From NCBI RefSeq assembly GCF_013315695.1, contig NZ_CP054353.1: a stretch of 64,000 bases of DNA; one strand, 5' to 3'. The notes beneath the pieces were generated by a model that was not told the DNA's origin, ran no database searches, and saw only the letters and a list, made by a program, of their open reading frames with translations. Origin of the DNA: Escherichia coli. Its GTDB lineage: Bacteria > Pseudomonadota > Gammaproteobacteria > Enterobacterales > Enterobacteriaceae. Below, piece after piece: positions 11,322 through 55,399 of this stretch. The translations under genes and the position numbers were made by a program. Numbering within the stretch: position 1 is the stretch's first letter; each line of letters begins with the position of its first letter.

Positions 11322-11629
11322 AGATACCTCCTCGACGGCTGACTTTGTGTGCTCTCCTCTGTGATGATCTTCTGATTTAATTTTAATCAATGATAAAGAA
11401 GTTGATGGTGACCATTTCTGATGCAGTTGTTCGAAAAAACACTGTGACGGAATGTGATGAACTTCAAATCAGGGAGTTAGTTCTTTTGAGCGAAAGATGA
11501 GATTTATTTGTCGGCTGGCCTTGAGTTTAGCGGGGCATACAAGTACTATAACGCGTCATTTTTCAGCCGACCTTTAACACGTTCCTTGCCTCCCCGGGAT
11601 TCGGCTGACCCAGACAGGAGGCTGAATAA

Positions 11630-12043
<414 letters not shown>

Positions 12044-14172: not shown

Positions 14173-14520
14173 TTATTCTACGCTGTTGGTATCGGTGCGT
14201 TTGTTAATCATCTGGTTAACCAGCCACAAAAAGCCATTGAGAAAGTTATTGATTCTACATGGAATTATTATATTTCTAATCCCTGGTTTTTAAAAGTTGT
14301 GCATAGTGAAAATCAAAGTAAAGGTGTGCATTATGCAAAATCACAGCGTCTCTTAGAAATTAACCATACGCACTTGCAGTTAATGGAATCCTTATTGGAT
14401 GAAGGGAAGAAACACAATATTTTTAAGCCAGATAGCGACCCATTGCAGGTGAATATTAATATTGCTGCGCTTGGGGGATATTATTTGATCAACCAGCATA
14501 CGCTTGGCCTGGTTTATCTG
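14173..14520 (+). pseudogene. ytfA: ytfA remnant: C-terminal fragment of a TetR-family regulator, no HTH domain, 3' end abutted by the IS
   Basis: Frame opens after TAA at 14170-14172 and reads ...[22 protein letters not shown]...[24 protein letters not shown] (ligand-domain-like), then runs into the IS left end. Track ORF 14299..14790 is a chimera of this frame and IS sequence. Confidence 0.5.
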
Positions 14521-14574
14521 GTGCGCCGTAAAACCCCGTCCTTCAGGGCGGGGATATACGGCGCGGTTTTCCAC

Positions 14575-15006
14575 CTAACCAGGTGTTTGCTGTTGTTCAA
14601 TGTATTGACGGATGGCGGATATTGGCGCACCTCCGCAGCTACTGGCAAAATAGCCAGGACTCCACAAAACGCCTTTGTAGTAATACCTGACTGCAATATC
14701 TGGTCGATCTCGTCGCAGTCACCTACCCGATACGCCTTTGAGGCTGTTTACCAGACTGGATATCGCCAGTTTGGGAGGATAGTTAATTAACAAATGGACG
14801 TGATCTGGTTCGCCATCCATTTCAACCAGTTCAGCTTCAAAATCAGCACATACATTTGAAAAGTAAGTGCGTAGTTTTTCTGTCGCGTCATAGTCAAAAA
14901 TCTGACGTCGGTATCTGGTGACAAAGACCAGGTGAACATGCATCAGGAAAACACAATGCCTTCCCCGTCGGATATCGGTTTCTTTATTCACAGACCAAAG
15001 TATCAT
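14575..15006 (-). pseudogene. tnpA: IS200-type TnpA (HUH/Y1 transposase) inactivated by an in-frame TGA
   Basis: ATG 15006: MILWSVNKETDIRRGRHCVFLMHVHLVFVTRYRRQ...[31 protein letters not shown](14719-14721)[50 protein letters not shown]. HxH motif is upstream of the stop; the conserved SPGYFA...GGAP C-terminus lies after it. Confidence 0.8.
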
Positions 15007-15013
15007 TTGGCCT

Positions 15014-16222
15014 GTGAAACGACTACAGGCATTTAAATTCCAGTTAAGACCCGGTGGTCAACAGGAGCGTGAAATGAGGCGCTTCGCAGGCGCATGCCGT
15101 TTCGTTTTCAATCGTGCTCTGGCGCTTCAGAATGAGAATCATGAGGCCGGTAATAAATACATCCCTTACGGGAAAATGGCTTCCTGGCTGGTTGAGTGGA
15201 AAAACGCCACTGAAATGCAATGGCTTAAAGATTCGCCCTCACAGCCATTGCAACAGTCACTGAAAGACCTTGAGCGGGCTTACAAAAACTTCTTCCAGAA
15301 GCGGGCTGCTTTTCCCCGATTCAAAAAGCGGGGACAGAATGATGCATTCCGCTACCCGCAGGGCGTTAAGCTCGATCAGGAAAACAGCCGTATTTTTCTG
15401 CCGAAACTTGGCTGGATGCGCTACCGGAACAGCCGTCAGGTCACGGGTGTTGTGAAAAATGTCACTGTCAGCCAGTCCTGCGGTAAGTGGTACATCAGTA
15501 TTCAGACAGAAAGTGAAGTATCCACTCCGGTTCACCCTTCAGCATCAATGGTCGGGCTGGATGCTGGCGTGGCTAAACTCGCCACGCTGTCAGATGGCAC
15601 AGTCTTTGAGCCTGTAAACAGTTTTCAGAAAAACCAGAAGACGCTGGCGAGACTTCAGCGACAGTTAAGCCGCAAGGTCGAATTCAGCAATAACTGGCAG
15701 AAGCAGAAACGCAAAATACAGCGACTGCATTCCCGTATCGCAAATATCCGCAGGGACTACCTTCACAAAGTCACAACGACCGTCAGCAAAAACCACGCAA
15801 TGATAGTCATTGAGGATTTGAAGGTCAGCAACATGTCAAAGTCAGCAGCGGGTACGGTCAGCCAGCCGGGGCGCAATGTCCGGGCAAAATCAGGTTTAAA
15901 CCGTTCGATACTGGATCAGGGCTGGTATGAAATGCGCCGCCAGCTTGAGTACAAGCAGCTCTGGCGTGGCGGTCAGGTGCTTGCTGTTCCGCCAGCGTAC
16001 ACAAGCCAGCGTTGCGCGTGCTGTGGTCATACAGCGAAAGAAAATCGCCTGTCACAAAGTAAATTCAGATGCCAGGCATGTGGATATACAGCGAACGCTG
16101 ATGTAAATGGCGCTCGTAACATTTTAGCGGCGGGGCACGCCGTTCTTGCCTGTGGAGAGATGGTGCAGTCAGGCCGCTCGTTGAAGCAGGAACCCACCGA
16201 AATGATTCAGGCGACAGCCTGA
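15014..16222 (+). CDS. tnpB: TnpB (IS605 OrfB family; RuvC-like RNA-guided nuclease family), apparently intact
   Basis: 402 aa from GTG 15014; N-terminal [12 protein letters not shown]...RFVFNRAL; RuvC-I GLDAGV, RuvC-II VIEDL, zinc finger CACCGH...CQACGY, Ruv[13 protein letters not shown]. Confidence 0.85.
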
Positions 16223-16290
16223 ACGAAGCAGGGATCCACGTCCTTCAGGGCGTGGAGGATGTCAACATATCAGTATGGTTTCCCCCCAGG
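16080..16290 (+). ncRNA. Candidate TnpB right-end guide RNA (omega/reRNA) spanning the tnpB 3' end and right-end hairpin
   Basis: Inferred from family architecture only; right-end hairpin at 16238-16257 is visible; no promoter or processing site identified. Confidence 0.3.
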
Positions 16291-16356
16291 CACTGGAAGC
16301 CAGACGTAAGGTCATCAAAGAGACGCTCCTTAGCTGGCTTTTGGTTGATCCTTCAT

Positions 16357-16995
16357 CTACCGCGCACGAATAAAACTGCCATCCGGCTGGCGGGTAAACA
16401 GGACCTGTTGATTATTCCCCGTATCAATGGTTAAGCCCGTCACCACGCCGCTGGCGTTCTGGCGGATTTTCACCATCTGCCCATTTTGCAAATTACTCAG
16501 CGGCTTACCCGCGCCTTCTACCTGCGCCATTGCATAGACATCGGTAGCGGGCAGTCCGTGGTCGCGGAACAGCTGCGCCATCGTTTTACCGGGTTCGACA
16601 CGGTAAGAGCGCCATTGATTATCAATTCCGCTATCTGGCTGGAATGGTTGCGTTTGGGTAGTTTGCGGCTGTTCTTCTGGCTGGCCTTCCTGTATAGGTT
16701 CTGGAGCGACCGGAGCCACCTGATCAGGATCATTTTGTGGTGTGACTAATTGCGCCCGCAGCTGTTCTTCTGTCGGCGGTTGTGATTGCGACTGAATATC
16801 TAACTGCGCTTCACGCGTCACCACCGGCGCGTTGGGCGTATCATCAGATGGAAGCAGAAATCCGACCACCAATACAATGGCGGCAATAATGATCCCCCGA
16901 CGATGCATCGGCGGCAGCGGGTCCATGAAGCGAAAATTGTCCGGCGCGTGCCAGACTTTCTCCAGGGTTGGTTTTAGTTCAAAGCGCCCGGGCAT
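16357..16995 (-). CDS. ytfB: YtfB, OapA/LysM-domain cell-division protein
   Basis: 212 aa from internal Met ([46 protein letters not shown]...), single TM, Pro/Gln-rich linker. Confidence 0.85.
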
Positions 16996-17213
16996 GGTTT
17001 CCTCCTGCTCCGCGTCTTGTTCCTCAATCATAGCCTATGAATAAGCTAACGCTATGATGTCCGTGGTAAACCCGCCTTTATTATATTCATACGGGATATT
17101 GCTATTGTTTCTTTTTCCCCGGGATTTGTCATCATTCCTGCGACAAAGTTTTACCCAAAGAAGTGTGGCTGATATGCTGCCCGCTACTTTTATATCCTAA
17201 GAAAGGAAATACG

Positions 17214-24844: not shown

Positions 24845-25033
24845 CAGGGACATCCTTTTATCATCGGGAATACGAAAGAAAAGGGAGAATAAACGTCTTA
24901 CTTATAGAACAGTGAAGAATGCCACAATTTTACGCTTTGAAAATGATGACACTATCACAGTTGGCGCATTCATTAACGATAGGGTATAAGTAAAACAATA
25001 AGTTAACACCGCTCACAGAGACGAGGTGGAGAA

Positions 25034-29477: not shown

Positions 29478-29654
29478 ATCTTATCCGACCTTTCAGGCCA
29501 GATCCTCGGAAGGGGAAGTTGATTAATTTGTGTGAAATACACATTGAAAGCCGATTCGAAGAAAGTGAACCGGCATTTTCAGTGGCTAGTATAGCGTAAG
29601 GTACTGTAAAGCCGCCAGAGGGTTAAAATTCAGACTGCTGATAAATGCAAAACT

Positions 29655-29755
29655 GCCTGATGCGCTATGCCGATCAGGCCTACGCACTCGTTGCAATATA
29701 TTGAATTTGGACGATTTTGTAGGCCTGGTAAGGCGTTTACGTCGCATCCGGCATA
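29655..29755. repeat. REP/BIME repeats
   Basis: gcctgatgcgc...gatcaggcctac and aggcgtttacgtcgcatccggca units between ytfL and msrA. Confidence 0.6.
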
Positions 29756-38682: not shown

Positions 38683-38785
38683 TGCCTGATGCCGATTCGT
38701 AGGCCGGATAAGGCGCTCGCGCCGCATCCGGCGATGGTGCACTGAAGCCTGATTCGACGCTTACCGCGTCTTATCATGCCTACTG
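38683..38785. repeat. REP/BIME repeats
   Basis: gcctgatgccgattcgtaggccggataaggcgctcgcgccgcatccggc between ytfQ and ytfR. Confidence 0.6.
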
Positions 38786-44915: not shown

Positions 44916-45045
44916 CGGCTTCAGCCTGATATAGCATTGCCGGATAAGGCGTTTACGCCGCATCCGGCATTTGAGCATAGTGCCTGATGCGACGCTTGAT
45001 GCGTCTTATCAGGCCTACAGGTGCACCGCATCCGGCAAACCATAC
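44916..45045. repeat. REP/BIME repeats
   Basis: several gccggataaggcgtttacgccgcatccggca / gcctgatgcgacgct units between mpl and yjgA. Confidence 0.65.
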
Positions 45046-55112: not shown

Positions 55113-55205
55113 GTTGCCAGCAGGTATTATATCGCCATAAATGCTACGAATATTATTGGATTCTCCTTATTATTTGCGGCGCTTTTTTCACTTACCGGAG
55201 GTTAT

Positions 55206-55259
55206 ATGGAACCTGATCCCACGCCTCTCCCTCGACGGAGATTAAAACTTTTCCGGTAA
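55206..55259 (+). CDS. mgtL: MgtL, proline-rich leader peptide of the mgtA leader
   Basis: 17 aa [17 protein letters not shown] inside the long mgtA 5' leader (55113-55399). Confidence 0.8.
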
Positions 55260-55399
55260 GCCCGTCTTTTCACGGCGTTACCGGATGCGTAAGGCCGTGA
55301 CGTTTTAACGTCCCTGCTCAGCTTTATTACCTTCAGGTAAGGCTTCGCCACGCCTGAAGACATTTCTGTACTGTTTCAGACAGTGCGGAGGGACTCCTT

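Follow-up and report, generated by a model that had tools for sequence, protein, structure and literature searches.

The window analyzed here, a stretch of 64,000 nucleotides from the chromosome of Escherichia coli (NZ_CP054353.1), displays the gene order rplI, yjfZ, TetR-family gene, ytfB, fklB and cycA, as read from its list of open reading frames (ORFs) and from the RefSeq annotation of near-identical loci. Its TetR/AcrR regulator gene (ytfA-like) is split into two halves (14224-14517 and 16266-16373) by a copy of an insertion sequence (IS) that RefSeq labels 'IS200/IS605-like element IS609'. In strains with an empty site, the same gene is whole (648 bp) and shares 17 bp with ytfB, the two genes overlapping at their 3' ends. 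A near-full-length copy of IS609 is found in 4,836 of 5,426 complete E. coli genomes. We focus here on the 3' end of this element, where the gene of the RNA-guided endonuclease TnpB (InsQ) overlaps a region that probably specifies the scaffold of the TnpB guide RNA (named omega RNA or reRNA). The coordinates of all features are given in Table 1.

The boundaries of the IS609 copy were deduced from the comparison with the empty site of strain PMV-1 (L001), which reads ...GGTTTAT/CACATCAGTATGG (i.e. TTAT/CACATC, the slash marking the insertion point), whereas the occupied site of the window reads ...GGTTTAT-CTGGTGCGCC...GGAGGATGTCAA-CATATCAGTATGG, with the element running from CTGGTGCGCC to GGAGGATGTCAA. 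The insertion took place without target-site duplication (TTAT/CACATC... when empty versus TTAT-IS-CATATC... when occupied). The tetranucleotide TTAT also stands immediately 5' of the left end in five independent insertions (L010, L012, L015, L038 and L044) and is the transposon-adjacent motif (TAM) predicted for IS609 in a previous study (PMC12781874). On the other side, the terminal GGAGGATGTCAA is unchanged in all 41 aligned sequences, and A, C, G and T all occur directly after GGATGTCAA in 36 relatives from other species; because of this variability and of the empty-site comparison, the right end was fixed at A16265. A boundary model based on pentanucleotides (TTATC/TCAAC), drawn from the first four copies, was ruled out by 36 junctions at which all four bases follow TCAA. 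The hairpins at 14534-14553 and 16235-16256 are same-strand direct repeats with 90% identity; they are subterminal and imperfect, and the element has no terminal inverted repeats. Independent insertions again show the hairpins near both ends, TTAT at the target and TCAA at the terminus, which is more than expected by chance. With a Y1 (HUH) transposase TnpA, subterminal hairpins and a tetranucleotide-specific insertion that leaves no duplication, the element is a member of the IS200/IS605 family.

Several lines of evidence designate 16116-16265 as the likely scaffold of the IS609 TnpB guide RNA, the next ~16 nt (16266-16281) being those that would serve as guide. The first one is homology. Table S3 of a 2026 study (PMC12781874) contains, besides three scaffolds of ISAba30, one named 'IS609 omega-RNA scaffold'. 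All of them end in GGAUGUCAA, and the last 206 nt of the window element (16060-16265) align colinearly with these scaffolds down to the same GGAUGUCAA end. The published IS609 belongs to the same family, with the same organization, TTAT target and GGATGTCAA end, and its 206-nt scaffold matches 150 to 190 nt of a Pantoea copy (L023) aligned here. The window copy differs from it as another chromosomal copy, with its own guide and an inactivated tnpA, and the differences between the two scaffolds are mostly located in paired positions, as compensatory changes. The module is thus already known: it belongs to a named and widespread IS, the system has been described since 2021 and the scaffold appears in a published study. 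The second line is a covariance model (R1) built from 25 non-Escherichia sequences only. In a search of the 64-kb window, it matched over its full length just once, on the plus strand at 16116-16265 (163.8 bits, E ~5e-48), the only other match being weak, partial and restricted to the left-end hairpin. The conserved block and the R1 match both stop at 16265, and the tnpB stop codon (16220-16222) is enclosed in helix D of the structure described below. The initial annotation had proposed a guide-RNA region at 16080-16290, shared in part with the 3' end of tnpB and with the right-end hairpin, which is supported by the published scaffold homology, by covariation and by synonymous constraint. In covariance-model searches, as it had suggested, no curated Rfam guide-RNA family reached its threshold, and R1, built from other genera, gave the above score.

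The third line of evidence is the conservation of structure. A scan of one genome per species yielded 58 loci whose encoded relatives are 30-96% identical. From these, 33 alignable right ends (class A only) from ~15 genera were retained, including Escherichia, Citrobacter, Erwinia, Morganella, Serratia, Xenorhabdus, Klebsiella, Yersinia, Pantoea, Budvicia, Photorhabdus, Arsenophonus and the Acinetobacter-type ISAba30. On this set, we scored a hand-defined structure of five stems (helices A to E) and one candidate long-range helix, amounting to 43 pairs. Pairing is observed in 94.6% of the cells (33 sequences, 43 pairs) versus 40-50% when partners are slid, and both sides change in 15 of the 43 pairs versus 5.8 +/- 1.5 in shuffles, none of the 500 shuffles reaching 15. 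The initial annotation had named a right end devoid of scaffold structure as a ground for rejecting its proposal; the right end carries a conserved structure, with compensatory changes in four of the five stems (helices A, C, D and E). In helix A, one pair is G-C in 16 sequences versus A-U in 15, and two synonymous third-codon positions are involved. This helix is also kept, as CCGC/GCGG through compensatory change, in a mini element of Arsenophonus nasoniae (L063, 1425-1639, ~215 bp) that consists of the left end and the right-end region without tnpB. Another deletion derivative (L052, 1378-1885, Photorhabdus heterorhabditis) comprises the left end and the last 395 bp. Neither of the two contains a transposase or a nuclease gene, and both may be non-autonomous elements relying on TnpA and TnpB in trans. 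At the other extremity of the scaffold, helix E is a 9-bp stem including one G-T pair and closed by a TTCA loop, which doubles as the TnpA DNA signal and the last scaffold stem. This hairpin had been initially located at 16238-16257; it does exist, but the stem-loop spans 16235-16256. The distance from 16257 to the ytfB stop at 16357, initially given as about 100 bp, is exactly 100 bp, and the same stop lies 91 bp from the true IS609 end. The 5' start of the scaffold core is located near 16116-16127, while the published IS609 scaffold design reaches the equivalent of ~16060.

Finally, the fourth line comes from the coding sequence itself. In a codon-level test of 18 intact tnpB genes, synonymous differences have a mean of 0.40 over codons 1-353. 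The figure for the final 49 codons, 0.24, is the minimum among 354 windows, and 0.07 is reached at 16154-16198. Amino-acid differences peak in the same terminal stretch. This combination of low synonymous and high amino-acid variation points to a nucleotide-level function that overlaps a weakly constrained protein tail, and the synonymous variation sets the 5' edge of the constrained RNA at ~16124.

Table 1. Coordinates of the predicted guide-RNA module, of the IS609 copy and of the adjacent genes in the window.
Feature	Position	Strand	Basis or remark
Guide-RNA (omega RNA / reRNA) scaffold core, predicted	16116-16265	+	model R1, published homology, covariation, low synonymous variation
Helix A	16127-16132 with 16138-16143	+	compensatory change in 3/6 pairs
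Helix B	16149-16153 with 16186-16190	+	invariant or one-sided variation only
Helix C	16157-16164 with 16173-16179	+	compensatory change in 4/6 pairs
Helix D	16202-16212 with 16217-16226	+	compensatory change in 3/10 pairs; contains the tnpB stop codon
Helix E, right-end subterminal hairpin	16235-16243 with 16248-16256	+	compensatory change in 5/9 pairs
Predicted 16-nt guide CATATCAGTATGGTTT	16266-16281	+	position by analogy with ISDra2 omega RNA
TTAT, TnpA target and predicted TAM for TnpB	14514-14517	+	empty site L001; 5 other insertions
TCAA, terminal 4 nt of IS609 (cleavage motif encoded by the transposon)	16262-16265	+	base after TCAA varies
IS609 copy, IS200/IS605 family	14518-16265	+	1,748 bp; ends from occupied-versus-empty comparison
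Left-end subterminal hairpin CCCCGTCCTTCAGGGCGGGG	14534-14553	+	direct repeat of right-end hairpin; partial R1 match, 12.6 bits
tnpB (InsQ/TnpB RNA-guided endonuclease)	15014-16222	+	402 aa, intact; stop TGA 16220-16222
tnpA pseudogene, Y1/HUH transposase	14575-15006	-	Pfam Y1_Tnp 8.4e-26, profile positions 1-78 of 121
ytfA-like gene, 3' remnant	16266-16373	+	RefSeq annotation of the L005 insertion and intact L001 gene; ORF list
ytfB	16357-17031	-	overlapped by the ytfA-like remnant

The IS609 structure can be compared with the omega RNA of ISDra2 from Deinococcus radiodurans, whose 116-nt scaffold forms four stems and a pseudoknot and precedes a 16-nt guide (PMC10097598). In both systems, the RNA overlaps the tnpB 3' end, stops at the right end and is continued by a 16-nt guide (predicted in IS609), and the right-end hairpin, closed by a U-rich tetraloop (UUUA in ISDra2 stem 4), forms the last stem. 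The 3' halves of the two scaffolds are recognizably alike: helix D of IS609 corresponds to stem 3 of ISDra2 and helix E to stem 4, while the linker GCAGGGAUC corresponds to ISDra2 GUGAGAAUC, and GGAGGAUGUCAA to GAGGUUCAA; the shared segment can be written as ...AUG-stem-CGAAG-N-GA(A/G)AUC-hairpin-GAGG(A)U(G)UCAA. In contrast, the TAM is TTAT in IS609 versus TTGAT in ISDra2, and the 5' half of the IS609 RNA is unlike that of ISDra2, with an extra 5' hairpin (helix A) and a RAGATH-18-like unit formed by helices B and C. RAGATH-18 RNAs are documented guides of IS607 TnpBs (PMC11061315). The unit formed by the IS609 helices B and C, internal loop included (CCUGUGGAG...CGUUGAAGCAGGAA), fits the RAGATH-18 consensus (RF03064) over the full length of the model with a sub-threshold score (16149-16192, 29.5 bits, E 0.0068; gathering threshold 44.9 bits), the inner hairpin being 27 nt shorter in IS609. 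The transposases also differ, with a Y1 TnpA (IS200/IS605) in IS609 versus a serine recombinase in IS607. Two further Rfam models gave sub-threshold matches, HgcC (RF00062; 16155-16278, 24.7 bits, gathering threshold 50 bits) and sot0042 (RF02656; 16095-16256, 17.4 bits, gathering threshold 88 bits). HgcC and the 'sense overlapping transcripts' (sot0042) are RNAs found at archaeal tnpB 3' ends. The three matches are colinear and all on the plus strand, and we consider them as leads rather than as evidence of membership.

The predicted guide corresponds to the first 16 nt of the ytfA-like 3' remnant and has no other close match in the window. The initial annotation had anticipated a guide derived from the ytfB-proximal flank: its flanking origin is supported, as the flank differs at every insertion, but the sequence itself belongs to the ytfA-like remnant. 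Indeed, the 20 nt that follow TCAA are unrelated among 36 loci. By analogy, the predicted target of the guide is TTAT followed by CATATCAGTATGGTTT. Across the 5,426 complete E. coli genomes, the uninterrupted site is found in 3,249 and the right-end junction of the window in 1,745. Among the sampled empty alleles, a perfect TTAT/CATATCAGTATGGTTTCCCCCC is present in L065, L066 and L068, whereas L001 and L064 read CACATC..., with a mismatch at guide position 3. Conversely, an occupied copy in an O157:H7 strain has a CACATC guide, so the CATATC and CACATC flank haplotypes are each found both occupied and empty (loci L001 and L064-L068). The predicted guide follows the local ytfA haplotype, as expected of a flank-derived guide.

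The partner protein is encoded by an intact tnpB. Its product contains the Pfam domains OrfB_IS605, Cas12f1-like_TNB and HTH_OrfB_IS605, and is matched at 6e-54 by the cryo-electron microscopy structures of ISDra2 TnpB (8H1J, 8EXA and 8BF8). Residues D183, E267 and D363 align with the D/E/D catalytic residues of the ISDra2 RuvC domain, and two CxxC motifs (CACC and CQAC) are present and aligned as well. The situation is different for tnpA, which is interrupted by a premature TGA at codon 96 (14719-14721), as deduced from its translation and from the comparison with L005 and L004; the same codon is TTA in the intact sister copy L005, and the truncated product lacks the C-terminal third of TnpA. 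L005 (strain CFSAN051542) occupies the same site, is 99.3% identical and has an intact tnpA; none of the 12 differences between the two copies falls in the scaffold or the guide. Since its tnpA is dead, the window copy cannot excise itself and requires TnpA from another copy, which a strain with an intact-tnpA IS609 copy could provide in trans. Elsewhere in E. coli chromosomes, IS609 is found at ydcL-ydcO (L002), yedK (L003) and yeaR-yeaQ (L004), each copy with its own flank-derived guide (e.g. TATCGGTTTCTGTCAG at ydcO); the copies at ydcO and yedK have a tnpA pseudogene, and that at yeaR-yeaQ an intact tnpA. Between the two genes of the window copy, a 13-nt inverted repeat (14987-15018, 6-nt spacer, 92% complementarity) covers the start codons from which tnpA (15006) and tnpB (15014) diverge, and a terminator-like stem is located at 15010-15030; the inverted-repeat region may act as a shared tnpA/tnpB regulatory element. 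Besides, tnpB contains a second synonymous dip in its middle (15749-15810, codons 246-265; 0.19-0.22 versus ~0.40), with a minus-strand promoter-like site running from 15828 to 15800 at its edge.

How the module would operate can be proposed by homology with ISDra2 (PMC10097598) and with the IS605-family elements of Geobacillus stearothermophilus (Meers et al., bioRxiv 10.1101/2023.03.14.532601). A transcript reaching through the tnpB 3' end and the right end, most likely the tnpB mRNA itself, would be bound and probably trimmed by TnpB. The scan for promoters and terminators revealed no plus-strand promoter-like site within tnpB and no terminator at the right end. A promoter dedicated to the guide RNA is therefore not supported, and the RNA is most likely processed from the tnpB transcript. 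The scaffold would fold into at least five stems, the right-end hairpin being the last one, and the TnpB-RNA complex would search for TTAT followed by CATATCAGTATGGTTT, which corresponds to the scarless excision joint or to a naturally empty ytfA-like allele. Cleavage of that site would then be followed by recombination with an occupied copy, restoring the element. The homing described for Geobacillus obeys the same predicted logic: one motif is read by both TnpA and TnpB, the flank of the right end serves as guide, and TnpB is directed at the scarless donor joint or at an empty site. The window copy differs in that its partner TnpA is a pseudogene.

A number of observations weigh against this functional view. 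Rfam models at gathering thresholds found nothing in the scaffold region, and RF02998 and RF03065, the two Rfam models that Meers et al. associate with TnpB guide RNAs, gave no match at E <= 10. The single-sequence fold of 16100-16282 has an energy similar to that of shuffles (z = -1.41), which is uninformative either way, and the promoter/terminator scan detected neither a sigma-70-like promoter nor a terminator within the region or in its vicinity. For the pseudoknot that characterizes TnpB and Cas12 guide RNAs, there is a single candidate, 16119-16124 with 16257-16262, where ACAUUU is a candidate partner of UGUCA. This helix pairs in 94% of the cells and displays no both-side change; the lack of a covariation signal results from an invariant 3' strand and from a 5' strand that encodes the conserved protein motif ARNILAAG. 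In ISDra2, the pseudoknot involves bases -6 to -2 and the loop of stem 1 (PMC10097598), whereas the 5' strand of the IS609 candidate is at a different position. Two other partners of UGUCA were rejected: the GACA loop of helix D pairs in the window copy and is not conserved, and GGAAC at 16189-16193, the analogue of ISDra2 GGAAU, is not complementary. In addition, A16226, which is T in most copies, creates an A-A mismatch in helix D of the window copy. At the level of the family, the text of PMC12781874 is silent on the activity of its IS609-type TnpB, interference assays with the TnpB of Helicobacter pylori IS608 showed no activity (Meers et al.), and no IS609 insertion was reported in mutation-accumulation lines of E. 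coli K-12.

Part of these observations, namely the nonsense codon that makes tnpA a pseudogene in the window copy as in several other E. coli copies, the helix D mismatch, the silent IS609 in mutation-accumulation lines and the inactive IS608 TnpB, would fit a relic, i.e. a genuine IS609 guide-RNA region by descent that is without consequence in this lineage, where TnpB may be inactive or unexpressed. We regard this as somewhat unlikely. Indeed, tnpB is full-length with an intact catalytic triad in the window and in many other copies, and the 12 differences from L005 spare both scaffold and guide. Synonymous constraint and compensatory changes reveal a long-term selection on the RNA across genera, although they speak for a function of the family and not necessarily for that of this strain. 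An alternative in which the right end has no role as RNA and only provides single-stranded DNA signals to TnpA, for hairpin binding and the choice of the cleavage site, is very improbable. Classical TnpA signals are indeed present in the hairpin 16235-16256 and the terminal TCAA, with counterparts at the left end, and covariation of helix E by itself cannot tell a DNA role from an RNA one. However, by analogy with IS608, TnpA uses the subterminal hairpin and a few bases next to it, whereas compensatory changes and low synonymous variation cover a much longer stretch, which takes in helices A, C and D and begins ~140 nt before the element ends. Moreover, the same region has been used experimentally as guide-RNA scaffold in relatives (PMC12781874). 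Finally, a mere 3' stabilizer or terminator of the tnpB mRNA, as could be suspected from G+C-rich stems at the 3' end of a gene, is hardly conceivable given that no T-run follows the hairpin, that the terminator scan found nothing there, that a conserved multi-stem architecture of 150 nt ending exactly at the transposon boundary exceeds the needs of a terminator, and that the region is homologous to known guide scaffolds.

The guide-RNA interpretation thus provides exact coordinates for what looks like a functional non-coding RNA module in a known mobile element (scaffold 16116-16265, guide 16266-16281 and TAM 14514-14517), located in a 3'-end stretch that annotation pipelines leave unmarked; beyond correct annotation, its import is limited. 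Among the papers searched, those mentioning IS609 are nearly all genome surveys, and none links insQ with a small RNA. The interpretation also predicts that the endogenous TnpB of most E. coli strains should cleave TTAT followed by CATATCAGTATGGTTT, the empty allele, which ~60% of the sequenced E. coli carry. An IS609 TnpB that is active could change how recombination turns out at the ytfA-like locus, and would be a background nuclease to consider in E. coli hosts of TnpB assays. In this respect, the polymorphism between empty and occupied alleles in E. coli offers a useful handle for a direct test. As a dead tnpA is combined with an intact tnpB and a fixed guide, one could even speculate that IS609 at the ytfA-like gene is no longer a transposon and has become an allele-specific drive or guard, which would cut an incoming empty allele upon recombination or transfer and so bias inheritance towards the occupied allele. 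We consider this idea improbable; if true, it would imply a chromosomal, transposition-independent role for a TnpB/guide-RNA pair at a locus where 1,745 occupied and 3,249 empty alleles coexist.

Some right ends depart from the class A organization analyzed above. In class B (L026-L031, L040, L041 and L056, from Photorhabdus and Klebsiella pneumoniae), helices A to C and the GGAGGATGTCAA end are kept, the middle segment is different and the right-end hairpin is longer. The TnpB of this class has an identity of ~61-64% in the five loci where it is full-length (L026-L030), with larger values in partial or degraded loci. RNAalifold applied to the mixed alignment A1 mis-paired the middle region, where the class B right ends of Photorhabdus and Klebsiella are not alignable, and this fold was discarded. 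Elsewhere in the window, matches above the Rfam gathering thresholds include an RpsF leader (11566-11650), the small RNA ES239 (24845-24967), STnc450 (29539-29596), ES036 (29676-29717), two copies of the REP-derived naRNA4 (38702-38780 and 44938-45015) and a magnesium riboswitch (55191-55306).

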